DNA of 64,000 bases. Source: an uncultured Desulfobacter sp. (GTDB taxonomy: Bacteria; Desulfobacterota; Desulfobacteria; Desulfobacterales; Desulfobacteraceae). Where the stretch lies: positions 2,816,001 through 2,880,000 of the forward strand of contig OY762069.1 in NCBI GenBank assembly GCA_963665095.1, written 5' to 3'. The position numbers were made by a program, and so were the translations under genes. This document shows, piece by piece, positions 46,442 to 64,000 of this stretch; the stretch's first letter is position 1, and each line of letters begins with the position of its first letter. The notes beneath the pieces were generated by a model. It searched no databases, was not told the DNA's origin, and saw only the letters and a list, made by a program, of their open reading frames with translations.

Positions 46442-46837
46442 GGTTTTGGCAAGGAATACTCCCATTTCTCTATCCGTACCGTTGATATGATTTACCAGCC
46501 AGTCTTTGAGAAACGGCATCAGTTTGTCAGGGATTTCATTGTCTCCATCCAGGAATGCTTCATAAAGCTCCGTGGCCTGCCCAACCAGATTCTCATGTTC
46601 GGTTTTGTGATCGAACAAACCTTCATAAGCTGACTCCTGCATAAGCCGTTCTTCATGTCTGAAATGCCAGCTGGTATAGCTGATAAGTTCTTCGAGCAGG
46701 TCTGCCAAAGCGTCCTTATCCGCGCCTTCAGCCAGTTCATCATGGATTCTGTTTACCATGCCGACAAGTTTCTTATGGTCATCGTCTACCTCTTCAATAT
46801 TTACACTTAGTTTGTCGCTCCAATCGATGAACGCCAT
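46433..46837 (-). CDS. Bacteriohemerythrin
   Basis: WSDKLSV..VDDDHKKL, HFRHEERLM, HKTEH, WLVNHINGTD di-iron motifs. Confidence 0.95.
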   Translation of the reverse strand: MAFIDWSDKLSVNIEEVDDDHKKLVGMVNRIHDELAEGADKDALADLLEELISYTSWHFRHEERLMQESAYEGLFDHKTEHENLVGQATELYEAFLDGDNEIPDKLMPFLKDWLVNHINGTDREMGVFLAKTLS

Positions 46838-47009
46838 CTTCTTATGCCTTTTTTGAATATGATTGTTGTAAGTTTTAACAGAAAGATTTAAATTTCATAT
46901 AGAAATACGGTAATTTAGTAAAGAAAAAAATATAATTCTATGACCGTTTACGTTTTTCAAAACGATATGTTGTTGACGATACATTCAAATTTTTGATGAT
47001 TGAGGGAAA

Positions 47010-47948
47010 ATGGAATTTGATGCTTTCAAGAATGAACTTGATGTAATTATACAGGGTGAAAAATGTCTGGATTCGTGCAAATCCCAGGTTTCAGCGGAGC
47101 AATACAAAGCGCTGTTAAACGATTATAAAAAATTATTTAAAACCACAAAACGCTTGGTGAGTATCAGTGACCGGAGCGAGGAGCGGCTTAAAGAAGCCAA
47201 CACCAAAATCATACACCAGCAAAAAGAGTTGCAGTATCAGAATGAAATTCTCAAGGAGAACATGAAACTGCGTGAGGATGTGGAGCGTATTACCCGCCAT
47301 GATTTAAAAACCCCGCTGAATGCAATCATTAATTTTCCTAAGTTGATTGACAAGTCAAACCTTACAGAAAAGCAGATGGGGCAGCTGGACAAGATAAGTA
47401 CCTCAGGATATAAGCTGCTGAACATGATCAATCTTTCTTTGGATCTTTTTAAAATGGAACAGGGCACTTACCAGCTTTCGCCGGTTCCGGTGGACATCAG
47501 CAGAGTACTCCAAGATATCTTTCAGGAAAACCGCTTATATATCAAATCAAGACGTATCGTCCTTGATATCAGGTTAAACGGAGCTATCGTGGATGAAACT
47601 TCGGTATTCAATGTTCCAGGCGAGGAGCTGCTGCTTTACTCCATGCTGGCCAACCTGATCAAGAACGCGTTGGAGGCATCTGCGAGAAAAGAGACTATTT
47701 TGATAAAAATGGAAGATGCTCCGGTACCGTCTATTACCATAAATAATAAAGGGATTGTGCCGGAGGACATGCGTAACAGATTTTTTGAAAAATATACTAC
47801 GTCGGGCAAGAAAACAGGTACCGGATTAGGTACGTATTCGGCAAAGCTTATTATGGATACACATGGCGGGACAATATCCATGGACTCCTCTGAAGAAAAG
47901 GGTACAACCCTGCGGGTTACATTCCCGGATAATGGTTCTAAATCATAG
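47010..47948 (+). CDS. Soluble histidine kinase with SiaD-like N-terminal coiled coil
   Basis: RHDLKTPL H-box, NLIKNALEAS, KKTGTGLG. No TM or PAS domain. Confidence 0.9.
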   Translation: MEFDAFKNELDVIIQGEKCLDSCKSQVSAEQYKALLNDYKKLFKTTKRLVSISDRSEERLKEANTKIIHQQKELQYQNEILKENMKLREDVERITRHDLKTPLNAIINFPKLIDKSNLTEKQMGQLDKISTSGYKLLNMINLSLDLFKMEQGTYQLSPVPVDISRVLQDIFQENRLYIKSRRIVLDIRLNGAIVDETSVFNVPGEELLLYSMLANLIKNALEASARKETILIKMEDAPVPSITINNKGIVPEDMRNRFFEKYTTSGKKTGTGLGTYSAKLIMDTHGGTISMDSSEEKGTTLRVTFPDNGSKS

Positions 47949-48102
47949 GAATTGTCTTTTCTCAATTCTTATCCCAAAAGCCTAATACAGTTCGTAACCA
48001 AAGGATAGGAAATTTTTTTGACAAAAAATCGTCTTGACACAAGTGCCCAATTTTATGTTCATGACCGGTACATTAAAGACGGAACCCCTTAAATTGAAAG
48101 CT

Positions 48103-48476
48103 CGGTTTTTATCATGGGCCATTCACTTCTGTACCCGCTGGACCTTAAGGATGAGGAAAACTATAATCTAGCCAAATCCCTGTCAAAGGTGGATGGGGCC
48201 CTGCATATCGGGGCTGATTTAAAACTGCACGGATTTGCCTGCCTTCTGGAAGGCAGTTATGTAACCGGAGAGAACCGGGCACGGGTTGCCCGGTTTAATT
48301 CACCGTTGCGGTTCACAGCAGAACACGAAAATATTATCGTGATCGTGGTTTCCTCTGACACCCCGGTTTCGGTCATGATGGGCGGTGTGGTGCTTGAAAC
48401 CAAATGGAAACGGGAGACCGCTCTCATCTGCAACATCCCTGTCCCCCTGCAGGAATGGGTGGCTAAAACCAAATAA
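48103..48476 (+). pseudogene. 374-bp direct repeat, copy 2: displaced 3' fragment of the DAC-domain gene
   Basis: Same length as copy 1, with substitutions at conserved sites (RGAR to RVAR, NSAL to NSPL). No 5' part of the gene. Confidence 0.9.
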
Positions 48477-50298: not shown

Positions 50299-50769
50299 AT
50301 GGTATATTCAAATAACCAGGACAGGCTGCAGCAGCAGGCCATCAGCAGCTTCTGGGAAAATGTGCCCCAATTATGGCACCGCATCCGCGCCAATGTACGA
50401 AACATTGCTGTAAAGGAGTTTGGCATCACAGTGGAGCAGTTCCACCTGCTGCGCCATATCCGCAAGGGCATGGGCTCGATGAGTGAGCTTGCCAATGCCC
50501 GGGGCGTCAGCCGACCGGCCGTGTCCCAGGCAGTGGAAACCCTTGTGAATAAAGGTCTGATCCTTAGGGGAGAAAAAACCGGGGACCGGCGCTTTGTCCA
50601 TCTTGAACTGACCCTGGCCGGCGATTCCCTGCTGTCCGCCATTTTCCAGAAAAACCGGGCATGGATGGAAACCCAGTTTTCCACCCTCTCCCCGGATGAA
50701 CTTACCATGGTGATTGAGGCCTTTGGACTCATCGGCTCTTTGTTTAAAAACAGCCCGGAGGGGCCATGA
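50299..50769 (+). CDS. MarR-family regulator
   Basis: SELANARGVSRPAVSQAVETLVNKGLI..GDRR..LTLAG. Confidence 0.93.
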   Translation: MVYSNNQDRLQQQAISSFWENVPQLWHRIRANVRNIAVKEFGITVEQFHLLRHIRKGMGSMSELANARGVSRPAVSQAVETLVNKGLILRGEKTGDRRFVHLELTLAGDSLLSAIFQKNRAWMETQFSTLSPDELTMVIEAFGLIGSLFKNSPEGP

Positions 50770-52529
50770 GCCCGTTGCGGCAGATCCTGGTCTTTGTCCG
50801 GCCCTATGGACGCCTGGCTGTTCTGAGTCTTGTCCTGCTCGTCGGCACCATTGCCATTGATCTGTCCATTCCCCGCCTGATCCAGCGGATAATTGACAGG
50901 GGTATCTCCATGCATGACGGGTCACTGGTCCTGCATACCGCGATTTTGATGATAGGATTATCCGTGCTTGGTGCCATTCTGGCCATTGGCAACAACTATT
51001 TCTCCGTCCGGGTGGGTGAAGGGGTGGCCGCAGACCTGCGGGACGCCCTTTTCACGAAGATTCAAAGTTTTTCCCACGCCAACCTGGACCGTTTCCCCAC
51101 AGGAGACCTCCTGGTCCGTCTCTCCTCGGACACCAACGCGGCCCAGCGCTGGGCCATGGTTACCTTGAGAATCGGCACCCGGGCACCGCTGCTTATGACC
51201 GGAAGTTTAATCCTGATGTTCAGGACCAATGCAGAACTGGCCGTCAAGGTCCTGCCCCTTCTGGCCGCCACCCTGGCCGTTACCTTCTGGTTCGGCCTGC
51301 GCATGGAGCCCTTTTTCGGCCGGGTTCAGAAACAGCTGGCCCGCCTCAACCAGGTGCTGCAGGAAAACATTGCCGGTGTCCGCCTGGTCAAGGCCTTTGC
51401 CCGGTCCGCCCACGAGGCCGGCAGGTTTGCCGCAGCCAACAACGCCCTGGCCCGCCTGACCGTCAAAGTAATGCGGTACATGGAGAGCATGGCCCCCACC
51501 CTGGGATTTATCATCGGCACCGGGGTGGTCCTGGTAATCTGGGCCGGGGGCTGCCAGGTGATCCGCAACGACCTGACCCTGGGGCAGATCGTGGCCTTCA
51601 GTAACTACATGCTGACCACTGTGACGCCCTTGATCATGATGGCCCGGCTCTCCAATGTCTGGGCCAGCGGCATGGCCTCCATGCGGCGCATCAACAAGGT
51701 GTTGGACGAAGTCCCTGACATTCAGGATATTGAAGCGGCCCAATCCCTTTCCTCTGATTCCAGGGGTGCCATCCGGTTTGAAAAGGTTGTCTTCACCTAC
51801 GGCAATGCAGCTGCACCCGTACTCAGGGGGATAGATCTTGACATTGAACCCGGCCGGATCACCGCCATTTTAGGGGCCACAGGCTCCGGCAAGTCCACCC
51901 TGGTCAACCTGATCCCCAGATTTTATGATCCATCCCAGGGCCGCATCCTCATGGACGGAACAGACCTGCGGCACCTCAACCGGAAGACCCTGCTTGGCCG
52001 GATCGGCGTGGTACCCCAGGAGACCATCCTTTTCTCCGGCTCCATTCTGGATAATCTGCGGCTGGGATGCGAAGACGCTTCAAAGGAAGACCTCATGGCC
52101 GCCGCCCGCATGGCCCAGGCCGAGGATTTTATCCTCCGCCTGCCCCAGGGGGCTGACAGCCGGGTGGAAGAACGGGGCGTCAACCTTTCCGGCGGCCAGA
52201 AACAGCGGCTGGCCATTGCCCGGGCCCTGGTCTCCCGGCCGGATATCCTGATCCTGGACGACAGCACCAGTGCCGTGGACATTGAAACCGAAGCCCGGAT
52301 CCATGCCGCCATTCAGGCGGGTCTGCCCCATACCACCCTTGTGATCGTGGCCCAGCGGATTACCACCGTTCTTAGGGCAGACCAGATCATTGTTCTGGAC
52401 CAGGGCCGGATCCAGGCCAGGGGAAAACATGCCCGGCTTCTGGCCCACAGCCCGGTCTATCGCGAAATATTTGAATCCCAGCTGGGACCGCTTTCCGGGG
52501 ACACCCCTGTTATGGGAGGCCTGTCATGA
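50766..52529 (+). CDS. Heterodimeric ABC exporter subunit 1 (TMD + degenerate NBD)
   Basis: GATGSGKS, LSGGQKQR, ILDDSTSAVD and AQR (non-canonical Walker B and switch). Confidence 0.94.
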   Translation: MSPLRQILVFVRPYGRLAVLSLVLLVGTIAIDLSIPRLIQRIIDRGISMHDGSLVLHTAILMIGLSVLGAILAIGNNYFSVRVGEGVAADLRDALFTKIQSFSHANLDRFPTGDLLVRLSSDTNAAQRWAMVTLRIGTRAPLLMTGSLILMFRTNAELAVKVLPLLAATLAVTFWFGLRMEPFFGRVQKQLARLNQVLQENIAGVRLVKAFARSAHEAGRFAAANNALARLTVKVMRYMESMAPTLGFIIGTGVVLVIWAGGCQVIRNDLTLGQIVAFSNYMLTTVTPLIMMARLSNVWASGMASMRRINKVLDEVPDIQDIEAAQSLSSDSRGAIRFEKVVFTYGNAAAPVLRGIDLDIEPGRITAILGATGSGKSTLVNLIPRFYDPSQGRILMDGTDLRHLNRKTLLGRIGVVPQETILFSGSILDNLRLGCEDASKEDLMAAARMAQAEDFILRLPQGADSRVEERGVNLSGGQKQRLAIARALVSRPDILILDDSTSAVDIETEARIHAAIQAGLPHTTLVIVAQRITTVLRADQIIVLDQGRIQARGKHARLLAHSPVYREIFESQLGPLSGDTPVMGGLS

Positions 52530-54361
52530 ATGTTCCCGGCATCCCAGGCGGCAAGCGGCTTGGCAGCGGCCCCGGTCACCAGCGGGTGGGCATGAAGGTT
52601 CCCATAGACGCGGCCCAAAACTCACGCCGGGCCATCCTGCGCCTGACAGGATATCTGCGCCCATTTGGCAAGCGGTTAAGCCTGACCATGGTGCTGGTGG
52701 TTCTCTACACGGGCTTAGGCCTTCTGGATCCCTACCTTATGGGGGTTGCCATTGACAGGTTTATTGTAAACGGGGATATCCCGGGCCTGACCCGGATTGC
52801 CCTTTTAATGCTGGCTGTTATCCTGGCCCACCATCTTTTCCAGGCAGCTGCCGGATGGATGATGGCCAAAATCTCCCAGGATGCACTTAAGACCCTGCGC
52901 CAGGATCTGTTCACCCATCTTTCATCCCTGCCCCTCTCCTTTTTTGACCGGCATCCGGCAGGGGAATTGATGAGCCGGCTGACCAACGATATCGACGCCA
53001 TCAACCAGGCGGTCTCCCAGAATGTGATTGCGCTGATGGCAAGCCTTTTGTCCCTGGCCGGCATTATTATTGCCATGTTTGTGCTCAACCCCTGGCTGGC
53101 GCTGTCCACCCTGCTGGTGGTCCCGGTTCTGCTGGGTACCACCCGGCTCATTGCCAAGTATACAAGGCAGCGGTTTCGAAACCTGCAAAAAAATCTGGGG
53201 CACCTCACCGGGGTGATGGAGGAGGCGGTGAGCGGACAGCGGGTGATGACGGCTTTCCAGGGCAGCGACAAAATAACGGACGCATTCCGGCAAAACAACC
53301 AGGCCGTGCGCAAAGCCGGAATCGCGGCCAACACCTATGCCCTGCTGCTCATGCCCCTGACATCAGTGCTGGGCAACTTCTTTGTCATTGTCCTGGCCGG
53401 GTTCGGGGGATGGCTGGCCCTGCGGAACCTTGCCACGGTGGGCACCATTGCCACCTTCATCAGCTATGGCCGCAACTTTGTCAATCCCCTGCGGCAGCTG
53501 ACCCATATCTACAACGGAATCCAGGCGGCCCTGGCTGGAGCCGAACGGGTCTTTGAAATCATCGACACCCCGCCCGAAACCAGAGACACCCCGGCCGCGC
53601 CTCCCCTGCCCCGACCTAAAGGAGAGGTCTTTTTTGACAAGGTCGGCTTCGGCTACATTGACAACAGCCCGGTGATCCGGGAAATGACCCTGCATGCCGC
53701 AGCCGGACAGACCATCGCCCTGGTGGGCCCCACCGGGGCAGGCAAGACCACAATGATCAACCTGCTGTCCCGGTTTTATGAAATCGACACCGGCACCATC
53801 TTCATTGACGGCACAGACATCCGGGACATCCCCAAACCAGACCTGCGCCGGCAGCTGGGCACCGTTCTCCAGGACAATTTTCTTTTTTCCGGCACCATCA
53901 TGGACAATATCCGGTACGGCCGCTTGAACGCGTCGGACCGGGAGTGCATGGCCGCGGCCCGGGCTGCCGGGGCAGACGCATTCATTGCAGGGCTTGCCCA
54001 AGGGTATGACACCCGGCTCCTTGAACGGGCCGCCAACCTCTCCCAGGGACAGCGGCAGATGCTGGCCATTGCCCGGGCCATTCTGGCAGACCCGGCCATT
54101 TTGATCCTGGACGAGGCCACAAGCTGTGTAGACACCCGCACGGAAATCCATATCCAGCGATCCCTGCGCCGCCTCACCGCCGGCCGGACCTGTTTCATCA
54201 TCGCCCACCGGCTCAGCACCGTGCGTGATGCAGATCTGGTCGCGTTCATCCAGGACGGCAGGATTGCCGAACAGGGCACCCACGACGAACTGCTCCGCCG
54301 CAAAGGGCTTTACCACCATCTATACCAGCATCAATACCAGGGGATTCCGGAAGGAATTTGA
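52526..54361 (+). CDS. Heterodimeric ABC exporter subunit 2 (TMD + NBD)
   Basis: GPTGAGKT, LSQGQRQ, ILDEATS, IAHRLST. Confidence 0.94.
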   Translation: MNVPGIPGGKRLGSGPGHQRVGMKVPIDAAQNSRRAILRLTGYLRPFGKRLSLTMVLVVLYTGLGLLDPYLMGVAIDRFIVNGDIPGLTRIALLMLAVILAHHLFQAAAGWMMAKISQDALKTLRQDLFTHLSSLPLSFFDRHPAGELMSRLTNDIDAINQAVSQNVIALMASLLSLAGIIIAMFVLNPWLALSTLLVVPVLLGTTRLIAKYTRQRFRNLQKNLGHLTGVMEEAVSGQRVMTAFQGSDKITDAFRQNNQAVRKAGIAANTYALLLMPLTSVLGNFFVIVLAGFGGWLALRNLATVGTIATFISYGRNFVNPLRQLTHIYNGIQAALAGAERVFEIIDTPPETRDTPAAPPLPRPKGEVFFDKVGFGYIDNSPVIREMTLHAAAGQTIALVGPTGAGKTTMINLLSRFYEIDTGTIFIDGTDIRDIPKPDLRRQLGTVLQDNFLFSGTIMDNIRYGRLNASDRECMAAARAAGADAFIAGLAQGYDTRLLERAANLSQGQRQMLAIARAILADPAILILDEATSCVDTRTEIHIQRSLRRLTAGRTCFIIAHRLSTVRDADLVAFIQDGRIAEQGTHDELLRRKGLYHHLYQHQYQGIPEGI

Positions 54362-54493
54362 CCGGCACCCCCTACCTCCCCTATTCCCCCAATTCTTGGG
54401 CGAACAATATCAACAATCAGCGTTTTAGAAACTTATCTTTTAATTTCAATATGATATAGAAAAATAATAATTTTTTACAAAATCTTCTTGACC

Positions 54494-54544
54494 CTAATAC
54501 ATACTTTTAATATATACCTTTTATATATTAAAAGTATGTATTAG
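54494..54544. promoter_or_regulatory. Perfect 23-bp inverted repeat over the padR promoter (probable operator)
   Basis: CTAATACATACTTTTAATATATA-CCTTT-TATATATTAAAAGTATGTATTAG, immediately after TTGACC (54488-54493). Confidence 0.8.
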
Positions 54545-54582
54545 CACGGGAGAAAATTCCCGTCACTTTCAGGAGTTCAACC

Positions 54583-55107
54583 ATGTCATTGAAATACGCG
54601 ATTCTGGGGCTGCTGCACTATGAAGAGATGCACGGGTACCGGATCAAGGAACATATTGAAAAAAATTTCGGCCATATGTGGTCCATCAACTTCGGACAGA
54701 TCTATCCCAATTTAAAAAAACTGGAGCAGGAGGGCCTGGTCTCCATGGGGAAATCGGTTCAGAACGGCCAGAAAGGACCGCCAAAAAAATTATACTCCCT
54801 TACGGACAAGGGCCGTGAGGCATTCACCGACTGGCTGTCGGAGTCGCCGGAAAAAAGTATGCTGCTTCGCGATCCTTTTTTAATGCGGTTTGTGTTTTTC
54901 GGATTCGGGGATAAAGAGCGGGCCCTTGAGCTGCTGGACGACCAGATCCGGTCCTGGGAGACCCAGCTCACCGTCCGATTGAAGAACCAGGGAAAATGGC
55001 ACGCCAAAGATATCTTTGTCACCCAGGTGGCGGATTTGGGCGTCCAGATGAACGAAATGTTTCTTAATTGGCTGAAAGCAACAAAGGAGAAGCTCGAAAA
55101 CTCCTGA
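54583..55107 (+). CDS. PadR-family regulator (AphA/PadR type with C-terminal domain)
   Basis: MSLKYAILGLL..MHGY.IK..W....GQIYPNL..KKLYSLTDKGREAF..WL. Confidence 0.95.
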   Translation: MSLKYAILGLLHYEEMHGYRIKEHIEKNFGHMWSINFGQIYPNLKKLEQEGLVSMGKSVQNGQKGPPKKLYSLTDKGREAFTDWLSESPEKSMLLRDPFLMRFVFFGFGDKERALELLDDQIRSWETQLTVRLKNQGKWHAKDIFVTQVADLGVQMNEMFLNWLKATKEKLENS

Positions 55108-55127
55108 ACAGAACATTATTGAAATTC

Positions 55128-55243
55128 GTGTTTGAGTGGAAACCTGGCCCGGATGCAAGGCGCGGGAAATCTGCAACCGCATGGTTGTGAGGACCGCAAA
55201 TTTTTCTGCAACGAGGCAGGCGGGTAAGTTGCCGCGCAAACAC
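55128..55243. repeat. Palindromic MITE family copy B (diverged)
   Basis: GTGTTTGAGTGG...CCCGGATGCAAGGCGC...GCAACGAGGCAGGCGGGT...GCAAACAC. Confidence 0.75.
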
Positions 55244-55255
55244 CAGGGAGGGGGC

Positions 55256-56254
55256 ATGGCATACACAGGTATCTCGCTGGTAACCGGCGCTGCAGGTTTC
55301 ATGGGCAGCCATGTGGTGGAACTTCTGGCCCGTAAGGGTGTCCGGGTGCGGGCTACGGCCCGGCCGGGAAAAGACCTCTCCTTTTTTAATTCGTTAGGGG
55401 TTGAGTTTGTGGGCGCAGACCTTAAAGACCCGTCAAGCCTGAAGCCCCTGTTTGACGGCGATGTGGACCGGGTGTTTCATCTCGGGGCCGTCTGCAACTT
55501 CTCCACCCCTTACAAGGAGCTCTATCCTGTCAATGTCAAGGGTGTGGATGCCATCACCGCCCTGGCCCTGGAAAAGGGGGTGAAAAAATTCATCCATGTC
55601 ACCTCCACCAGCGTGTACGGCTATTACAACGGCACCCCCTACCGCGAAGACGATGAGCGCCACCCGGAAAACGACTACGGACGATCCAAGCGGGACGGGG
55701 AGGATATCGTGTTCGGCCGTATGAAAGAGGGGCTTCCCGCCGTCATTGTCCGGCCATGCACGGTATACGGCCCAAGGTGCACGGACGGGGCCGGCAAAGC
55801 CTTTTCCAGGCCTACTGCCATCTCTGCCATCCCCGGTTCCGGACGCCAGCGCCTCTCCAATATCCGGGCCGAGGACGTGGCCCGGGCCCTTTATTATCTG
55901 TCGGAAAAAGAGGAATGCACCGGCCAGGTCTTCAATATTGCAGAAGAGACCAATCCCACCCTGGCTGAAGCCCTCACCCTGGCCGCCCGGATCTACGGGA
56001 CAACCCCGCCAAAACTTCATCTGCCTTTATTTCTGGTCAAGTTCATTGCCAGGCTATCCGGAATGGCCGCAGGCAACCGCATTCCGGATCTCGAGTACGA
56101 GGCCGTCAGATATCTTTACTACGACTATATCGTGGACAATACCCGGCTTGCGCAGACTGGTTTTAAACTCAAATACCCGGAGTTTGAAGCTTCCATGCAG
56201 CAGCTGGCAGAAACCTATAATCAGGCGGAACAGCTTTTATCCACTAAAAAATAA
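55256..56254 (+). CDS. Extended SDR / NAD-dependent epimerase-dehydratase (3beta-HSD-like fold)
   Basis: VTGAAGFMG, HLGA, STSVYG, YGRSK, RPCTVYGP. Start at ATG 55256 after a GGAGG RBS. Confidence 0.9.
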   Translation: MAYTGISLVTGAAGFMGSHVVELLARKGVRVRATARPGKDLSFFNSLGVEFVGADLKDPSSLKPLFDGDVDRVFHLGAVCNFSTPYKELYPVNVKGVDAITALALEKGVKKFIHVTSTSVYGYYNGTPYREDDERHPENDYGRSKRDGEDIVFGRMKEGLPAVIVRPCTVYGPRCTDGAGKAFSRPTAISAIPGSGRQRLSNIRAEDVARALYYLSEKEECTGQVFNIAEETNPTLAEALTLAARIYGTTPPKLHLPLFLVKFIARLSGMAAGNRIPDLEYEAVRYLYYDYIVDNTRLAQTGFKLKYPEFEASMQQLAETYNQAEQLLSTKK

Positions 56255-56266
56255 AGGAGGCCGATC

Positions 56267-57094
56267 ATGAATCAGGTGGTTGTCATCACGGGCCTGGCCC
56301 AGGGAATGGGCCGGCATGTGGCCAAAATGCTGGCCAGGTCCGGAGACAGTATTGCAGGATTTGACATGAGCAAGGAGGATCTGGACACCTTGGGCCAGGA
56401 ACTGACTGCGCTTGGGGCCAAGCACTATCTCACGCCTTTGAATATCCTGGATCGTGAGGGGGTCAAAAAATTCGGAGACGAGGTCATGGCGCGGTTCGGC
56501 CGGGTGGATACGGTTCTCTCCAACATCGGTATCGGTTTTTTCGGCCCCTTTGAGGAGGTGGACCTGGACAAGGCTGCCCGGTGCATCGAGATCAATGTCA
56601 TGGGCACGGCTGCCGTATTCCAGTATTTCATCCCTGTTATGCGCAAACAGCGCAAAGGTAAAATTATTGCCATGTCCTCCCTGGTGGGCCAGGTGCCTTT
56701 CCCCTTTGAGTCCATCTACACGGCCACCAAATTCGCCATTGAAGGCCTGGTCCAGGCCATCCGCCTGGAAGTAAAACCCTTTGGCATTGAAGTGGCGCTC
56801 ATTGAACCGGCCCAGGTCTCCACCACCTTTGCCGCCAAAATTCATACGCTGCCGCCCGAAGGCTCAGTCTACCGGGACCGGGCCGCCCGCTTCATTGAGC
56901 GGGACAACGAACTGATCAAAACCGCCACCACGCCCGAGGCGGCAGCCAGACGGATTTACAAGGTGCTTAAAACCGGAAAACCCAAGGTGCATAACCAGGT
57001 GGATTTCATGAGTACCTTTTTTCTGTTTCTCAACAGGTACCTGCCCGGTGCCGTGCGGGACAAGATCCTGCTCAACCATATGAACATAAAATAG
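56267..57094 (+). CDS. Classical SDR oxidoreductase
   Basis: ITGLAQGMG, MSS, YTATK, LEVKPFGIEVALIEP. Confidence 0.93.
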   Translation: MNQVVVITGLAQGMGRHVAKMLARSGDSIAGFDMSKEDLDTLGQELTALGAKHYLTPLNILDREGVKKFGDEVMARFGRVDTVLSNIGIGFFGPFEEVDLDKAARCIEINVMGTAAVFQYFIPVMRKQRKGKIIAMSSLVGQVPFPFESIYTATKFAIEGLVQAIRLEVKPFGIEVALIEPAQVSTTFAAKIHTLPPEGSVYRDRAARFIERDNELIKTATTPEAAARRIYKVLKTGKPKVHNQVDFMSTFFLFLNRYLPGAVRDKILLNHMNIK

Positions 57095-57274
57095 TGTTTG
57101 AACGCAAAGTCACCCACCTGCGGCGTTGCTGTACAAATCTGCCAAATCATATAATCGGGCCTCACGTACTGAAGTACGCTTAAGGTTTTAGCTTTGCTTG
57201 CGCCTTGCATCTGGGCAACTTTGCGTCCAAACACCTTGGCATAGTCCAAATATGAGGTTTTTGTTCAGACACTA
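57092..57274. repeat. Palindromic MITE family copy C (most complete), TA-flanked
   Basis: Outer IR TAGTGTTTGAAC / GTTCAGACACTA. Inner 28-bp IR (23/28) spanning 57094-57234. Central CGTACT-GA-AGTACG. Confidence 0.88.
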
Positions 57275-57374
57275 AAATAGGTCAAAGGCAATGGCCCGGA
57301 TATTTCAGGGGCCGTGTCTTTTCCCAAGAGGACCATCCGGGGCAGCTTTCTGCCCATAACCAAAGGAGGTTTCC

Positions 57375-59741
57375 ATGACGGTGTTACCTGTTCCCACCCC
57401 CAGGGTGGCCCGCCTGCGGGAGCGCATCATCAATGCCCCCCAGGAGGTCTGCGTTGAGCGGGCCTGCCAAATCACCCGGTCCATGAAGAAAAACTGGGAT
57501 GCCCATCCCCTGATGCGCATGGCCCAGGCCCTTTTTGACATTCTTACAAACATCTCGGTGATCATCCGGGAAGATGAAGTGATCGTGGGGTGCCGGACGT
57601 CCAAGCTCAAAGGCGCGCCGCTGTTTCCGGAGAACAAGAACCGCTGGATTGAAGGGGATGTGGATAATTTTGACCGCCGCCTGGTCCAGCGCGCCCTGAT
57701 CACGGCAGAAGAAAAGGCCCGGATCAAGGAGGAAGTACTGCCCTTCTGGCAGGGCAAATCTGTGGAGGACCTGTTTGAGGCCCGCCTGGACGAGAGCGTG
57801 GCCCAGGACATGGACAAGTATATTTTCACCTTTATGCTTGAGATCACCTACGGCATCGGGCACTTTACCATGGACCATTCCCAGGTGCTGAAACTGGGGC
57901 TTTCCGGCCTGATCGGCATGGCCCGGGAAAAATACGCAGCACTTTCCGAAGAAGAGCAGGCAGGCGAAAAAGGCATCTTTTATAATGCAGTGATTCTCTC
58001 TCTCCAGGGGGCCATCGCCTTTGCCCGGCGGTATGCGGTCAAGGCTGAAGAACTTGCGGAACAGGAGACAGACCCCGCACGAAAACAGGAGCTGCTGGAG
58101 ATGGCCCAGGTCTGCGCAAGGGTCCCGGAACACCCGGCCACAACCTTTCACGAGGCGGTCCAGTGCGTCTACTTCATCCATCTGGTGACCCAGATCGAAA
58201 CCGGGGGAAATTCTGTTTCTTTAGGCCGTATAGACCAGATCCTGGCCCCTTATTACGAGGCAGACCTCAAGGCCTCACGCACCAGCCCGGCCAAGGCCAG
58301 GGAACTTTGCGCCCTGCTTTTCCTGAAGATGAACGAGATCTGGAACGTACTGGAGGAGGCTTATATCCCGGGCGGTGAAGGCACGGAAGGCAAGACCACC
58401 CAGAATATTACCGTGGGCGGCTTCACCCGGGACGGCAAAGACGGCACCTGTGACCTGAGCCACATCATCCTGGACGCCTATGCCGGCATTCGCACGGTTC
58501 AGCCCAACTTCGGGGTGCGCCTTTACCCGGACGGTCCCCATGATCTGTTTCAAAAGGCGGCCCAGTACTGCAAAGACGGGGTGGTCCTGCACTTTTTCAA
58601 TGATCCCGCAATCGTCAACACCCTTGTCAATGCCGGCCACACCCTGGAAGATGCCCGGGATTACGGGGTGGTGGGGTGCCTGGAACCCAATGCCCAGGGC
58701 AAGAGTTTCGGCTCCACCTTTGCCGTGCAGTTCAACCTGCTCAAATGCCTGGAGTTTGCCCTGAGCAACGGGGTGGACAATATTTTCGGGTATGTCTCCG
58801 GCCTTGAGACCGGGGACCCGGCTGATTTCACGGACATGGACCAGGTGTTTGACGCCTACCACACCCAGGTCTCCCACTACATCGGTCAGATGGTCAAAGG
58901 CATCACCTGCCTGGATGAGACCATTGCGGAAATGCTGCCCTCACCCTTTGCCTCGGCCATGATCCAGGGCCCCATGGACAAGGGGATGGACCTGACCCGG
59001 GGAGGGGCTGTGTACAACTCCACAGGGGTTCAGTTCATGGGCTTTTCCAATGTGGCGGACAGTCTTTATGCCATCCAGGAGACCGTGTTCAACAAGGACA
59101 AATTCACCCTGGAAGAGATCTCAGAATGGCTGGCCGACGACTGGATGGATGCCGAAAACAAGCAGGCCTGGCTGCTGTCGTCGGTTCCAAAATACGGCAA
59201 CGACCATGACGACGCCGATGCCATGGCAGCCCGGGTGGTCAATCATTTGTGCGATGTGCTGGCTCCCCACCAAAACTATAGAAAAGGAGCGTTCTGGCCG
59301 GGCATTTTTTCCGTGGGATTCCACATCACCATGGGCGCCTTCACCGGTGCCTCCCCGGACGGCCGCTGGGCAGGCGACATCCTTGGCAACGGCATTACGC
59401 CCTCCAACGGCGTCACCTTTGAAGGTCCTACGGCCGTAATGAACTCCGTGACCAAGATGCCTCTGGAGCGGATCTTCAACGGGGCCAATCTCAACATGCG
59501 GTTCCAGGGCAAGACCGTGGCCACGGATTTGTTTGCAGCCCTCATTCAGGCCTATTTCCAAAAGGGCGGGGCCCAGGTCCAGTTCAACATGGTGGACAAA
59601 GAGACCCTGCTCGATGCCCAGGCGCATCCTGAAAAATACGCGGACCTTGTGGTGCGTATCTCCGGGTATTCGGCCCTTTTCACCAAGCTAAGTGACATAG
59701 CACAAGATGAAATCATCAACCGTACGGAATTCGGATTGTAA
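57375..59741 (+). CDS. Glycyl radical enzyme of unassigned class (eliminase/PFL2-like)
   Basis: 788 aa, SLGRIDQ, Cys loop VVGCLEP, QVQFN, glycyl loop LVVRISGYSALF. Confidence 0.95.
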   Translation: MTVLPVPTPRVARLRERIINAPQEVCVERACQITRSMKKNWDAHPLMRMAQALFDILTNISVIIREDEVIVGCRTSKLKGAPLFPENKNRWIEGDVDNFDRRLVQRALITAEEKARIKEEVLPFWQGKSVEDLFEARLDESVAQDMDKYIFTFMLEITYGIGHFTMDHSQVLKLGLSGLIGMAREKYAALSEEEQAGEKGIFYNAVILSLQGAIAFARRYAVKAEELAEQETDPARKQELLEMAQVCARVPEHPATTFHEAVQCVYFIHLVTQIETGGNSVSLGRIDQILAPYYEADLKASRTSPAKARELCALLFLKMNEIWNVLEEAYIPGGEGTEGKTTQNITVGGFTRDGKDGTCDLSHIILDAYAGIRTVQPNFGVRLYPDGPHDLFQKAAQYCKDGVVLHFFNDPAIVNTLVNAGHTLEDARDYGVVGCLEPNAQGKSFGSTFAVQFNLLKCLEFALSNGVDNIFGYVSGLETGDPADFTDMDQVFDAYHTQVSHYIGQMVKGITCLDETIAEMLPSPFASAMIQGPMDKGMDLTRGGAVYNSTGVQFMGFSNVADSLYAIQETVFNKDKFTLEEISEWLADDWMDAENKQAWLLSSVPKYGNDHDDADAMAARVVNHLCDVLAPHQNYRKGAFWPGIFSVGFHITMGAFTGASPDGRWAGDILGNGITPSNGVTFEGPTAVMNSVTKMPLERIFNGANLNMRFQGKTVATDLFAALIQAYFQKGGAQVQFNMVDKETLLDAQAHPEKYADLVVRISGYSALFTKLSDIAQDEIINRTEFGL

Positions 59742-59764
59742 TTTTATATAGACGAGGAAAAAAC

Positions 59765-60700
59765 ATGAACAAAGTTGTTACTATGAAAGAAGCTGTGGCA
59801 TCCCACATCAAGGATGGGGATCTGCTGTTCATTGGCGGGTATGTCTGCAGGACTCCCTTTTCCGCAGTCCACGAGATCATCCGCCAGAAACGCCGTGATC
59901 TGACCCTTGTCCGCAGTAATGCGGCGGATGATTTTGACATGCTCATCGGAGCGGGCTGCGTCTCCCGGTTTATCTCCACCTTCCTCTCCCTTGGAATCTA
60001 CGGCCTTGGGCGCTGCTACCGCCGCTCCCTGGAAAAGGGGATCCCCCATAAAATAGAGATCGAGGAGTACACCAACCTGTCGCTGCCCATGATGCTCATG
60101 GCAGGGGCCATGGGCCTGCCCTTTGTGCCGGTGCGGGACATGGCAGGCTCCGACCTGCTCAATTTCTCCTCCTTTATGGGTGAAAACAAGTACAAGCTCA
60201 TGAACAACCCTTTTGACGGCAGCCCCACCGTGGTGGTGCCGGCCCTGAACCCGGATGTGGCCGTAATCCATGTCCAGCAGGCGGACGAATCCGGCAACGC
60301 CCAGATGTGGGGCATTGGCGGGGACTGCATGTACGGGGCCAATGCCGCCAAAAAGGTGATCGTCTCCTGCGAACGCCTTGTCTCCCGGGAGACCATCGGC
60401 AAAGATCCGTCCCGCACCATCATAGCCGGCTCCCGGGTGGCGGCCGTGGTGGAGGAGCCCTTTGGTGCCCATCCCGGATACACCCCGGGATTCTATGACA
60501 CGGATTTCTCTTTTGGCTATGTCTACCAGCAGGCGTCGGGCTCCGAGGAGACCTTCCAGGCCTTTCTGGACGAGTGGATATTCGGTCTTGAGGACCGGAA
60601 AGCCTATACCCAGCACTATATCAAAAAATTCGGGTATGAGGCGTTCCACAAGCTGGGTGCAGGATTCGATTACAGCTTTCCTGTGAGCTATGCCTACTGA
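59765..60700 (+). CDS. CoA-transferase alpha subunit (glutaconate CoA-transferase GctA-like)
   Basis: IGG..RTPFSAVHEIIRQ, DMLIGAG, AGAMGLPF, PALNPDVAVIHVQQADESGN, PFGAHP. Confidence 0.92.
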   Translation: MNKVVTMKEAVASHIKDGDLLFIGGYVCRTPFSAVHEIIRQKRRDLTLVRSNAADDFDMLIGAGCVSRFISTFLSLGIYGLGRCYRRSLEKGIPHKIEIEEYTNLSLPMMLMAGAMGLPFVPVRDMAGSDLLNFSSFMGENKYKLMNNPFDGSPTVVVPALNPDVAVIHVQQADESGNAQMWGIGGDCMYGANAAKKVIVSCERLVSRETIGKDPSRTIIAGSRVAAVVEEPFGAHPGYTPGFYDTDFSFGYVYQQASGSEETFQAFLDEWIFGLEDRKAYTQHYIKKFGYEAFHKLGAGFDYSFPVSYAY

Positions 60701-60724
60701 TTCTTACCCCATAAGGAGGGAAAT

Positions 60725-61519
60725 ATGACTGACAAACCTTATATCAAACCGGAGCTGATGGCCTGCTGCGGGGCCAGGGAGATATCCGACCACGACATGG
60801 TCATTGTGGGCACGGGCTTTCCTGCCATGTCCGCCAATATTGCCAAACACCTGCACGCCCCCAATGCCATGATGATGCAGGAGTCCGGGGTTATTGACGC
60901 CAAACCGGCACGACCTGCCCTTTCCGTGGGAGATCCCTGCCTGAATCCCGGGGCTGCCATGATCGGCGGCTTAGTGGATATCATGGGCATGTTTCTCCAG
61001 GCCGGCAGAGTGGATGTGGGCTTTTTATCCGGCAGCCAGGTGGACCGTTTCGGCAACATCAACACCACGGTGATCGGGGATTACAACGCCCCCAAAACCC
61101 GGCTGCCCGGATCCGGCGGGGCCAATCCCATCGGGTCCCTGGCGAAAAAGACTTTGATTATCGCCCTGCACGACAAACGGCGGCTGGCTGCCAAGGTGGA
61201 TTTCATCACCACGCCCGGTTACATCGACGGACCCGGTGCCCGGGAGAAATGGGGCATGCCGGCCAACACCGGCCCCCATGCCCTGATCACCAACAAAGGG
61301 GTGCTTAAATTCGATCCCGACACCCGGGAGGCGTATCTGTTCTCCTTTCATCCCGGCGCCACCATCGAAGAGATCCGGGAGAACACCCCCTGGGATCTCA
61401 AGATCGCCGACGATGTCCATGAGACCGCTCCGCCCACACCGGAGGAGTTGAATGTAATCCGCAAAATCCTCGACCCCTTTGGCATGATCTCAATTTATGA
61501 AAAAAAAGGTTACGTCTAA
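60725..61519 (+). CDS. CoA-transferase beta subunit (GctB-like)
   Basis: VGTGFP, QESG (catalytic Glu position), QVDRFGNIN, RLPGSGGAN, VDFITTPG. Confidence 0.92.
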   Translation: MTDKPYIKPELMACCGAREISDHDMVIVGTGFPAMSANIAKHLHAPNAMMMQESGVIDAKPARPALSVGDPCLNPGAAMIGGLVDIMGMFLQAGRVDVGFLSGSQVDRFGNINTTVIGDYNAPKTRLPGSGGANPIGSLAKKTLIIALHDKRRLAAKVDFITTPGYIDGPGAREKWGMPANTGPHALITNKGVLKFDPDTREAYLFSFHPGATIEEIRENTPWDLKIADDVHETAPPTPEELNVIRKILDPFGMISIYEKKGYV

Positions 61520-61590
61520 TGTTTGAACCCATAATCACCCACCTGCCGCGTAGCAGAAAAATTTTCATCCGGACGACTATGCGTCCAAAC
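61520..61590. repeat. Palindromic MITE family copy D (internally deleted)
   Basis: TGTTTGAACCCATAATCACCCACCTGC ... GACTATGCGTCCAAAC: both ends of copy C with the middle missing. Confidence 0.75.
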
Positions 61591-61625
61591 GAAAGTCTCT
61601 CATAGAAATTATTTAAGGAGGCGTT

Positions 61626-63026
61626 ATGAGTACTGAAACACCCAAAGCAAATGACATTCCGGCAGGTACACTGGAACTGGCAAAGTTTTGCGCCGGAATC
61701 CGGTATGATGCCCTGCCCGAATCTGTGATTGAGAAAACCCGGCTGTGTATTCTGGACTATGTGGCCAATATCTATGGTTCACTGCAGCTTGATGCGGTGC
61801 AGAAAACCGCGGACTACATCAAAAGTCTGGGTGCCGGCGGCCCTGCCACAGCCCTGGGATTGGGATTTAAAACCGACATCCACCATGCCGCCCTGGTCAA
61901 CGGCACCCTGGCTGAGGCCATTGAGGCCCAGGACGGGGTACGGTTTGGCGGCAACCACCCGGGCGTGGCTGTGATTCCGGCGGCCCTGGCCCTGGCAGAG
62001 GTCAGGGGGCTTTCAGGACACAAGATCATTGAAGCGGTGGTGGCCGGCTATGAAGCCGCCAACCGCATCTCTGCTGCCATGCACCCCTGGCACACCCTGG
62101 GGGGATTTCTGCCCACCGGCACCTGCGGGGCCTTTGGCGCGGCTGTGGCCGCCGGGCACCTCATGGGTTTTTCTGCTGAACAGATGGCAGCCGCCCTTGG
62201 CAATGCCGGGTATGTGCTGCCCGTGTCCACGGCCGAGACACTCATGGGCGGATACCCCATCAAGATTATCCAGGGCGGCCAGGGAGCCTCCTGCGGGCTT
62301 ATGGCAGCGGGCCTGGCAGAAATTGGGGTGGGCGGAGCCCCCTATATCATCGAAGGGTCCGGGCTCAACGGCGGATTTGCCAAAATCACCACCTGTGCCG
62401 ATCCAGACCTGACCCGGCTGATCCCCATTCCGGGCGACACCCTCTCCATGGAAGATGTCTATTTCAAACCCTACACGGCCTGCCGCCACACCCACGGCGC
62501 AGCCCAGGCCACGCTGGCTTTGCGAACAACCCACGACCTGGCCCTGGACCAAATCGACTCCGTGGCTGTGTTCACCTACGGCATTGCCCAGCTGGCCGTG
62601 GGAAAACCCCTGGAGGAGACCCCCACCTTTGTGTCGGCCCAGTTCTCCATTCCCTGGGTGGTGGCCGCCTGCCTGGCCGACGGCATGCTGGGACCTGCCC
62701 AGCTCACGGAAAAACGCCTGGAGGACAAAGATCTTGTGGCCTTTTCCCGGAAGATCAAAGTTGCCACCGATGAAACGCTCAATGCGGCCTATCCGGGCAA
62801 GACCTCGTCCCAGGTGGAGATCCGCCTTAAGGACGGCACCAATCTGGTCTACCAGGTGGATATCCCCAAGGGCGATCCCAGAGACCCCATGACCCAGGAA
62901 GATATCATCAATAAAATAAAGGCATTTTCTTCTGACAACCAACACCGCGATATTGACAACATTGCCGAACAGATCCTGGGCCTGGAGCAGATCACAGATA
63001 TCCGTCCCTTATTGTCGGCCATTTAA
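61626..63026 (+). CDS. MmgE/PrpD family protein
   Basis: AALVNGTLA, HPGVAVIPAALA, VVAGYE, FKPYTACRHTH, AQFSIPW, PKGDP..PMT. Confidence 0.94.
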   Translation: MSTETPKANDIPAGTLELAKFCAGIRYDALPESVIEKTRLCILDYVANIYGSLQLDAVQKTADYIKSLGAGGPATALGLGFKTDIHHAALVNGTLAEAIEAQDGVRFGGNHPGVAVIPAALALAEVRGLSGHKIIEAVVAGYEAANRISAAMHPWHTLGGFLPTGTCGAFGAAVAAGHLMGFSAEQMAAALGNAGYVLPVSTAETLMGGYPIKIIQGGQGASCGLMAAGLAEIGVGGAPYIIEGSGLNGGFAKITTCADPDLTRLIPIPGDTLSMEDVYFKPYTACRHTHGAAQATLALRTTHDLALDQIDSVAVFTYGIAQLAVGKPLEETPTFVSAQFSIPWVVAACLADGMLGPAQLTEKRLEDKDLVAFSRKIKVATDETLNAAYPGKTSSQVEIRLKDGTNLVYQVDIPKGDPRDPMTQEDIINKIKAFSSDNQHRDIDNIAEQILGLEQITDIRPLLSAI

Positions 63027-63039
63027 AAAAGGAAGTTTT

Positions 63040-64000
63040 ATGGATTTTACATTAACCAAAGAACAGACCATGCTGCTGGACAGCTTGCGGGACATGGCCC
63101 GCCGGGAAAATTTCAGGGAACTGGCCGATGAGATCGATAAAACAGGCGAATTTCCCCATGATCTGATGAAAAAATACGCAAAGATGGACCTTTTAGGCAT
63201 GACCCTTTCGGCGGATCACGGAGGCCAGGATATGGATGCCTTGACAGCAATCCTGGCCATAGAGGAGCTGGCAAAAATCAGCCCCATGATCGCAGCCCCG
63301 GTGTTTGAATCCAACGTGGGCCCGGCCCGGGTGGTCAGCCTTTTCGGTACGGAAGAACAGAAGAAAAAGATCATTCCAGGGGTATGCCGGGGGGATTTAA
63401 GCGTTTCCGTTTGCATGACCGAACCCGAGGTGGGCTCGGACCTGACGCGGCTTTCCACCCAGGCCATTGAAAAGGAGGACCACTTTCTGCTCAACGGCAC
63501 CAAGATCTTTATCACCGGCGGTGAAGTGGCCAGCCACTACCTGGTCTACACCCGGTTCAATGAGATCAAAGGCGCCAAGGGCATAGGAGGCCTGTTGGTG
63601 GAAAAGGGAACGCACGGGTTTACCTTCGGACCCCAGGAGGTGTTTTTAGGGCTGCGGGGCATGCCCTCATGTGCCCTTTACTTTGACAATGTAAAGGTCC
63701 CCAAAGAGAACCTGGTGGTCCCGGCCGGCGAATTCGGCCGGCTCATGCTGGCATTTGACATGGAGCGGTGCGGCAATGCCGCCATGTGCTTAGGCATTGC
63801 CGGCGGCGCCTTTGAGGAGGCCCGGCAGTATGCCCTGAAGAGAAAGGCCTTTGACCGGCCCATCTGCGAATTCCAGAACACCCAGTTTGCCGTTGCCGAC
63901 ATGGCCATGAAACTGGATGCGGCACGGCTTCTGGTCTACCGGGCTGCCACAGGCGCGGGCCAGGGGCTTCCCTCCATTTACGAGGCCTCGCTGGGCAAAT
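63040..64000 (+). CDS. Acyl-CoA dehydrogenase, runs off window end
   Basis: Not in the ORF track. Read by hand: MDFTLTKEQ...EIDKTGEFP...FGTEEQKKK...CMTEPEVGSDL...LNGTKIFIT...R.AFDRPICEFQ. Confidence 0.94.
   Translation, partial: MDFTLTKEQTMLLDSLRDMARRENFRELADEIDKTGEFPHDLMKKYAKMDLLGMTLSADHGGQDMDALTAILAIEELAKISPMIAAPVFESNVGPARVVSLFGTEEQKKKIIPGVCRGDLSVSVCMTEPEVGSDLTRLSTQAIEKEDHFLLNGTKIFITGGEVASHYLVYTRFNEIKGAKGIGGLLVEKGTHGFTFGPQEVFLGLRGMPSCALYFDNVKVPKENLVVPAGEFGRLMLAFDMERCGNAAMCLGIAGGAFEEARQYALKRKAFDRPICEFQNTQFAVADMAMKLDAARLLVYRAATGAGQGLPSIYEASLGK

Follow-up and report, generated by a model that had tools for sequence, protein, structure and literature searches.

An operon around a glycyl radical enzyme outside the characterised families in Desulfobacter, and its possible role in the anaerobic degradation of a glycerol-type lipid

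The window analysed here is a stretch of 64,000 nucleotides from an uncultured Desulfobacter sp. (contig OY762069.1, positions 2,816,001 to 2,880,000; G000:C1:2816001-2880000), whose 3' end carries an operon built around a glycyl radical enzyme (GRE). The operon codes, in this order, for a PadR-family repressor, an extended short-chain dehydrogenase/reductase (SDR), a classical SDR, the GRE, the A and B subunits of a CoA-transferase, an MmgE/PrpD protein, an acyl-CoA dehydrogenase (ACAD), an aldehyde dehydrogenase (ALDH), an SCP2-fold protein and a symporter, and it was followed past the window in the locus L001 (G000:C1:2870000-2889999). Judged by its sequence, the GRE is an intact enzyme of the eliminase type that stands in a clade of its own, apart from the characterised families, and it probably eliminates across a C-O bond by a radical route, acting on a substrate that is hydrophobic. 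Our reading of the operon as a whole is tentative: it would degrade a lipid with a glycerol-type head group (a 3-substituted propane-1,2-diol), for instance an alkylglycerol ether, and the GRE would be activated by AE-B, the activating enzyme of a second GRE. This chemistry is deduced throughout from what was observed, namely gene content, folds, catalytic residues, the modularity of the loci, a palindrome, the lack of an activase gene and co-occurrence across genomes.

The glycyl radical enzyme and its operon

The GRE (57375..59741, 788 aa; like all the operon genes in the window, on the + strand) contains the PFL-like barrel and the glycine radical domain (PF02901, 628 bits; PF01228, 97 bits) and scores below every NCBIfam cut-off, the general PFL2/3 models being closest (668/678 bits). 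Its equivalog scores (bits/cut-off) are 545/1000 for HpfG, the best, 516/1100 for HypD, 469/1050 for CutC and 447/1000 for HpsG, followed by 363/1100 for IAD, 275/1150 for HPAD and 148/994 for PFL. Among 1.84 billion 50%-representatives the family forms one cluster (1484 bits), and the next cluster is at 951 bits and 42% identical. The structural model (pLDDT 82.7) is best matched by propanediol and glycerol dehydratases (TM 0.94, also for 1r8w, a glycerol dehydratase; 35-36% identity), then by HypD, CutC and YbiW/PflD (30-32%) and last by the succinate synthases (25-26%). Residue conservation was scored in the 120 top-ranking homologues (identity 65-100%): Arg761, Gly764, Tyr765, Cys435, Glu437 and His163 are present in all 120, and Asn279, Ser280, Lys340, Thr342, Phe449, Phe645 and Phe649 are likewise invariant. 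Cys435, Leu and Glu437 make up the Cys-X-Glu motif that defines the 1,2-eliminases and isomerases among GREs (PMC13450708, section 5.6). Fumarate addition, decarboxylation and a dead GRE were considered and rejected on the grounds of this motif, the structural ranking and the invariant catalytic residues. The X-succinate synthases (BSS, MASS), at 25-26% identity, rank lowest among the listed structures, and no recurrent iron-sulfur (Fe-S) small-subunit genes were seen in the loci among open reading frames of at least 80 aa. An initial annotation of the window, made from its letters, had placed the GRE at the centre of a candidate undescribed catabolic pathway and had assigned it a radical elimination. 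An uncharacterised GRE of the eliminase type in a conserved catabolic operon is supported, identity to characterised GREs being 36% at most, and the operon is absent from the accessible text of a June 2026 review of GREs (PMC13450708).

The diol dehydratases (1r8w; 5i2g and 9rco-r; HpfG) resemble the GRE in fold, in the Cys-X-Glu motif, in the leaving-group His, in the Ser that follows the His281 position and in the aldehyde product, which is predicted for the GRE. The GRE differs from them in its 35-36% identity, in four replaced pocket residues, in the lack of an adjacent activase in the operon and in its operon partners, which are SCP2, the SDR pair and an acyl-CoA module. The residues His281, Asp447, Tyr339 and Tyr640 of glycerol dehydratase become Asn, Phe, Thr and Phe, so that of the six positions which we take to form the dehydratase pocket (His164, His281, Ser282, Asp447, Tyr339 and Tyr640; assumed except for His164/Glu435) only two are kept, as His163 and Ser280, and the GRE falls outside the dehydratases. 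The catalytic His164/Glu435 pair is named in section 5.6 of PMC13450708. The resulting signature, His-Asn-Ser-Glu-Phe-Phe, was found in 2/148 aligned rows (matches under 700 aa dropped), which are the query and its own representative, and we infer that the pocket is probably roomier and more hydrophobic than that of glycerol dehydratase. The ring-opening isomerases YbiW and PflD (8id7, 8id0) share the His and the Cys-X-Glu motif, and YbiW also has no Asp at the 447 position, where the alignment places a Thr; they themselves open rings at a C-O bond, and YbiW thereby cleaves an ether bond (PMC13450708, section 5.7). Unlike them, the GRE is only 31-32% identical, has Ser in place of the Arg found two residues before the 447 position, and has no sugar-phosphate pathway genes at its operon. 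Its leaving-group-site His agrees in the alignment with the C-O cleaving GREs, whereas choline lyase has another residue there. The operon would work like a diol dehydratase pathway, yet the GRE belongs to no characterised family.

The gene set was compared in 89 loci (the window's own, 8 from genomes and 80 of 213 from metagenomes; 62 clusters at 90%), of which 33 (27 clusters) are well flanked, with at least 3 kb 5' and 6.5 kb 3'. The GRE, both SDRs and the SCP2-fold gene are present in all 33, ACAD in 31, PadR in 26, transferase B with PrpD in 28, an ALDH or AOR in 23 and the symporter in 4. The classical SDR lies 5' of the GRE in 72/73 loci, and the extended SDR is absent from one additional locus (L119). 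Because the order recurs with GREs that are 59-100% identical, it is not due to chance; conservation of the neighbourhood had been proposed as a check by the initial annotation, which had also named the eight co-oriented genes of the window and expected them to continue past it, as they do. Transferase B and PrpD are inseparable (both in 40 of 49 loci, neither in 9, single in none), and being optional they are not core chemistry, contrary to the scheme first drawn up. Four loci without them (L017, L018, L041 and L070) carry an acyl-CoA ligase, which in L070 scores above the long-chain ligase cut-off. Occasional extras are MFS transporters, arylesterase-like and penicillin-acylase-like hydrolases and Fe-alcohol dehydrogenases. 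In the sample of 400 genomes from the window's phylum, 21 carry the GRE. Homologues with a named source are from records of Desulfobacter, Desulfobacterales, Syntrophales and Spirochaetota, most of them labelled as metagenome bins; these phylum counts and the Spirochaetota records suggest a fairly common anaerobic catabolic route. Some copies are interrupted: the GRE of L015 (genome G019) has a stop or frameshift, and several genes are so affected in G208 and G238 (among L113-L115 and L135), through assembly errors or decay.

Intergenic gaps within the operon range from -4 to 148 bp, except for 280 bp 5' of the GRE (57095-57374), a stretch in which a search for inverted repeats whose arms lie within 60 bp found none. 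The gene for the repressor (54583..55107; 174 aa, with a C-terminal Vir_act_alpha_C domain) is preceded by a -35 promoter element, TTGAC (54488-54492, + strand), located 5' of a 23-bp inverted repeat without mismatches, whose arms (54494-54516 / 54522-54544, + strand) surround the core TATATA-N5-TATATA. This core, with at least 11 of its 12 bases, occurs 5' of padR in 27/36 distinct upstream regions vs 6/1800 shuffles, and the window genome has three exact cores; a generic promoter and terminator scan gave results at chance level. The palindrome is most likely a PadR operator lying over the promoter, and the spacing, the ribosome-binding sites and the single upstream promoter/operator suggest that the operon is co-transcribed.

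The lipid carrier, the proposed pathway and its alternatives

The SCP2-fold protein (149 aa; L001:11761-12210), a putative lipid carrier and possible GRE subunit, is encoded past the window and was therefore missed at first. Its model (pLDDT 92.6) shows the SCP2 fold by Foldseek (E 9e-7), with a match of 0.94 in the ESM atlas and a VIA Z score of 12.2 (rmsd 2.1 over 109 aligned residues). The Pfam SCP2 profile matches only 2/42 of these proteins, at E 0.089. The GRE and this protein may form a complex, as is weakly suggested by a prediction scoring 0.50 (best control 0.00), with contacts that agree in at least 81% between runs and a partner pLDDT of at least 83; the mark applied is reached by 116/157 solved and 2/215 mismatched pairs, but with a score of at most 0.60 by only 18/157 solved pairs and by both of the mismatched ones. 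BSS, MASS and HPAD likewise have a small accessory subunit on the GRE, but those known belong to the Fe-S or rubredoxin proteins and not to SCP2 (PMC13450708, section 4.2). Among the eliminases and isomerases listed in the accessible text of that review, none has a lipid as its substrate or SCP2 as a partner. That this partner is invariant (33/33) speaks for a hydrophobic substrate and against a small organic acid; the initial annotation had proposed a hydroxylated organic acid.

Diol dehydratases, including HpfG, convert 3-X-propane-1,2-diols into 3-X-propanals (PMC13450708), and the SCP2 partner together with the hydrophobic pocket suggests that X is greasy here, alkylglycerol ethers being the simplest natural compounds of this kind. 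In the pathway that we propose, the substrate or a product would free PadR from the palindrome, SCP2 would deliver the lipid to the GRE, and the two SDRs would invert or set a stereocentre via a ketone. With a glycyl radical put in by AE-B in trans, Cys435 would take a hydrogen from the terminal CH2OH, Glu437 would deprotonate, and His163 would protonate the oxygen departing from C2 (as water, or, where C2 carries an ether, as an alcohol); the product would be a 3-alkoxypropanal. An ALDH or AOR would oxidise this aldehyde, the CoA-transferase (or a ligase) would activate the acid, and the ACAD would yield 3-alkoxyacryloyl-CoA; the transferase would then recycle CoA, and the PrpD-like protein would hydrate the free enoate, which would break up into malonate semialdehyde plus a fatty alcohol. 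The aldehyde-oxidising step, with the ALDH encoded at L001:10292-11731, had no place in the initial scheme, which is in part supported. In the DmdB-DmdC-DmdD branch of dimethylsulfoniopropionate (DMSP) degradation, a propionate with a heteroatom substituent at position 3 is activated and dehydrogenated, and the enoate is hydrated with release of the substituent. The proposed pathway shares this logic; the operon differs from that branch in having no crotonase, an ACAD of another subfamily and an anaerobic radical entry.

Several findings weigh against this reading. SCP2 proteins bind many lipids, so ethers are not singled out; 10/33 well-flanked loci have no ALDH or AOR within the range read; and the ACAD scores far under the cut-offs of its two best profiles. 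The replacement of Asp447, whose role in glycerol dehydratase we presume, would suit an ether leaving group but speaks against a plain loss of water as in that enzyme. The GctAB-like transferase, the GltS-like symporter and the invariant pocket-loop Lys340 could signal a carboxylic acid substrate, and the characterised MmgE/PrpD enzymes all use 1,4-dicarboxylates, according to the accessible text of PMC12290011. A glycerol-ether lipid as the specific substrate is open to considerable doubt. Should it prove true, it would explain the anaerobic turnover of such lipids. A literature search found nothing on anaerobic ether cleavage in alkylglycerols, nothing on enzymes for monoalkyl glycerol ether degradation and no paper describing the cluster, although it covered subscription journals thinly and is no proof of absence; the accessible parts of PMC7077986 and PMC8264950 hold nothing on the GRE clade.

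The same radical logic could act on another long-chain lipid, such as a 1,2-diol, a sphingoid base (with elimination of ammonia) or a cutin-derived fatty acid with vicinal hydroxyls, with the fatty aldehyde or ketone product entering ordinary fatty-acid oxidation. The SCP2 gene in 33/33 loci suits such substrates, as do the long-chain acyl-CoA ligase and extra ALDH genes of some loci, the accessory penicillin-acylase-like and arylesterase-like hydrolases, and the classical SDR (56267..57094; 275 aa, Ser-Tyr-Lys intact), which reaches 150 bits against a cut-off of 400 with the profile for 3-ketodihydrosphingosine reductase. However, a simple fatty aldehyde would not call for an ACAD of the type acting on short 3-substituted acyl-CoAs, nor for a PrpD protein and a transferase of the GctAB type, and the leaving-group His is that of the C-O cleaving GREs, from which choline lyase differs; we regard this alternative as rather unlikely.

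The SDRs also bring in steroids, bile acids or the side chain of a hopanoid as substrate; the pair would epimerise its hydroxyls before a radical dehydration. The best solved relative of the classical SDR is 17-beta-HSD1 (E 1e-29), and the extended SDR (55256..56254; 332 aa, epimerase/3-beta-HSD-like, YxxxK intact) has HpnA as its nearest profile and SdmB as its third. An MFS transporter with the conjugated bile salt transporter as nearest profile, a ligase near CasG, the SCP2 protein and the acylase-like gene would agree with such a substrate. These profile scores are all far under their cut-offs, however, and no recurrent steroid ring-degradation genes were seen in the 89 loci. Subunit B of the CoA-transferase (60725..61519; subunit A, 59765..60700) is moreover GctB-like (nearest solved relative GctB, E 9e-59) and far less like the next relatives, the 6co6/6con chains (E 4e-13), which we take to be IpdB. 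The steroid alternative is thus quite improbable. The transferase is of the two-subunit GctAB type of family I, and the GctB-aligned Glu of its QESG motif, presumably the catalytic residue, is kept in 45/45 sequences.

The combination of this transferase with the MmgE/PrpD protein (61626..63026) and the ACAD (63040..64000, cut by the window end; 386 aa in full, ending 200 bp further on at L001:10201) recalls the methylsuccinate module of the itaconate clusters of Pseudomonas and Cupriavidus, in which the three stand side by side (PMC12290011). On this basis, and much as in the initial annotation, the substrate might be a hydroxylated mono- or dicarboxylic acid of small or medium size that is oxidised or epimerised, dehydrated by the GRE, activated with CoA, isomerised by PrpD and dehydrogenated, with support from GctB as nearest solved relative, from GltS-like and monocarboxylate-type transporters (the symporter, L001:12207-13583, is the last gene before a strand change), from Lys340 and from Arg residues of the PrpD protein that do not vary. 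That protein retains His111, Glu100, Lys213 and Lys281, but the isomerase Tyr is replaced by Thr157 and the two carboxylate-binding His by Glu97 and Leu162, a change seen in 43/43 homologues (residue roles after the discussion of PMC12290011; in IDS numbering, the isomerase set is the catalytic His and Tyr, His85, Asp88, His150, Lys198 and Lys266). Without the Tyr, isomerisation, which the initial annotation gave as one of two options beside dehydration, is unlikely, and the protein is more likely a one-base hydratase or lyase, possibly acting on a monocarboxylate. Unlike the methylsuccinate module, moreover, the operon's is optional and attached to a GRE; it is missing from 9/49 loci that retain the GRE, whereas SCP2 is invariant. 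A hydroxylated acid of this kind is an improbable substrate.

The best profiles of the ACAD are 3-sulfinopropanoyl-CoA desulfinase (343/600 bits) and acryloyl-CoA reductase (331/640), the next one being at 242 bits. Its usual C-terminal Glu is replaced, with Ala-Gly-Gly in 43/44 sequences, and a Glu in an earlier helix (E242), at what we take to be the base position of isovaleryl-type dehydrogenases, is kept in 43/44. Ordinary beta-oxidation is not encoded at the loci, since one crotonase and one thiolase query retrieved two distant crotonases and no thiolase.

An aryl-glycerol or a lignin beta-aryl ether, with the SDRs oxidising C-alpha and the GRE eliminating the aryloxy group, would be in keeping with the aromatic-rich pocket (Phe449, Phe645, Phe649). 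Two further points were counted in its favour: PadR-type regulators sense phenolic acids, and it is SDRs that determine the stereochemistry when beta-ethers are cleaved aerobically. The loci hold no recurrent aromatic-degradation genes, though, and an SCP2 carrier would be unexpected, which leaves the lignin-type ether highly improbable.

Activation in trans

The window genome encodes 7 GREs and 6 activases, and each activase adjoins one of the other six GREs; the operon itself has no activase gene, a lack that the initial annotation had overlooked. Two more unstudied GRE families co-occur with the operon, each usually with its own activase. GRE-B (about 830 aa; G000:C1:339628-343983, L111, with further loci L098, L100, L104, L107, L116 and L117) has a PNPOx-like gene and its activase, AE-B (C1:342133-343101 in the window genome), alongside, is under all NCBIfam cut-offs and occurs in 43/400 sampled genomes. 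GRE-A (about 1000 aa; G000:C1:5861369-5866847, L110, with further loci L097, L099, L101, L103, L105 and L106) has a weakly SCP2-like N-terminal extension of 200 aa and an activase, an ALDH or an acyl-CoA ligase as neighbours, some copies being without an adjacent activase. An argument from a GRE-A/SCP2 gene fusion was discarded: the SCP2 protein of the operon has no sequence or profile similarity to the GRE-A N-terminal domain, and the SCP2 assignment of that domain is itself weak.

The AE-B clade (support 100/99) is present in 19/21 carriers of the operon GRE in the phylum sample vs 25/379 non-carriers, a co-occurrence whose Fisher value (2e-18) is overstated, since query and threshold were picked post hoc, the 21 carriers fall into 8 families and AE-B is frequent in related non-carriers. 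The two carriers counted as lacking it have a frameshifted AE-B copy directly 3' of GRE-B. GRE-B itself occurs in 17/21 carriers and 26/379 others, and GRE-A in 7/21 and 21/379, counts for which two candidates were scored per genome and which may include misses. Across all 32 carriers searched, AE-B scores at least 270 bits in 29 (the next tier is at most 224), is frameshifted in 2 and was not found in one (G009). AE-B is the sole activase found in G334 (100% complete, 140 contigs), which has two GREs, and in G349, which has three, and G286 retains a stand-alone AE-B that no GRE adjoins, GRE-B not having been found in that genome. In G042 an AOR of the operon type (median 56% to operon AORs) lies directly 5' of AE-B; the contig is short, and its position cannot be assigned. 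Taken together, it seems somewhat likely that the glycyl radical of the operon's GRE is installed in trans by AE-B, with the GRE-A activase ranked second (GRE-A being in 7/21 carriers). Sharing of this kind has a precedent in TdcE, which is activated by PFL-AE (PMC13450708).

Other observations count against AE-B. Each GRE is described as having an activase of its own, and the only cases of sharing known concern near-identical enzymes that have near-identical Gly loops (PMC13450708, section 2.5 for the loops, in the accessible text), whereas GRE and GRE-B are only 33% identical and their loops (RISGYSA; RVTGYNA or RITGYNA) differ at 2-3 of 7 positions, that of GRE-A (RISGYNA) being closer. The operator was not found 5' of GRE-A, GRE-B or their activases in the window genome. 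G009 (96% complete, 13% contamination) has an intact operon without a detected AE-B, and AE-B is also frequent among non-carriers from those families, which makes the association partly one of kinship or shared niche. There is hence a smaller yet considerable chance that AE-B only marks the same lipid-eating lineages and that the GRE takes its radical from any activase available (in G009 this would be AE-A, in L025 and G011 locally acquired enzymes) or obtains it non-canonically. In the genus of the window, 4/4 carriers and 1/21 others have GRE-A, and 3/4 and 0/21 have GRE-B. Two unrelated activases, in or beside the operon, fit this view as well: one lies within 1/89 loci (L025), and among 7 further operon loci one (L112, in G011) has a short activase 5' of padR. 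They are 37% identical to each other and outside the AE-A and AE-B clades; being neither mutual orthologues nor AE-A or AE-B, they define no cognate activase family. The few carriers in which GRE-A was found, the genomes with AE-B as sole activase found and the stand-alone copy of G286 argue in turn for AE-B.

Activation is the stated bottleneck in the study of GREs, and with a candidate for the activase, another for a small subunit, and an operator on which ligands can be screened, the substrate becomes directly testable. A broader proposal, that this would be the first oxygen-independent breakdown of ether lipids, with SCP2 as a delivery subunit, a GRE that splits or dehydrates the glycerol head of alkylglycerol ethers, and this GRE as one of several unstudied lipid GREs (about 33% identical) served in trans by a single hub activase, is unlikely as a whole.

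Some further activase genes were noted. Short GRE activases (257-261 aa, without a ferredoxin insert) are encoded at L112:15973-16758, 128 bp 5' of padR in G011, and at G000:C1:3010277-3011050. Solitary AE-B-type genes, with no GRE in the stretch read and often near acyl-CoA ligases, are found in L137, L138, L139 and L133, and in G238 a strong operator-core match (L135:7841) lies directly 3' of the AE-B gene, a single case. Open frames of 1120-1176 aa occur at G063:C102:10763-13594, G064:C128:52826-55657 and G231:C12:3969-4517; in G063 and G064, activase and PFL-like matches share one frame, as apparent activase-GRE fusions.

Flanking genes

Directly 5' of the operon and on the same strand (window 50299-54361) are genes that we take, from sequence motifs, to code for a MarR-like protein and two ABC exporter halves; they do not recur in the other loci. 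Further upstream (window 42128-48476) are a gene presumably for a 1437-aa periplasmic-sensor/PAS/phosphatase-like protein, a convergent and presumably hemerythrin-like gene, a presumed histidine kinase and a 120-aa fragment that seems to resemble a diadenylate-cyclase domain. On the other side, three genes of the - strand (L001:13655-17024; 487, 392 and 197 aa) converge on the operon end, and we take their products to be lipoprotein-like, the 197-aa one resembling LpoB.

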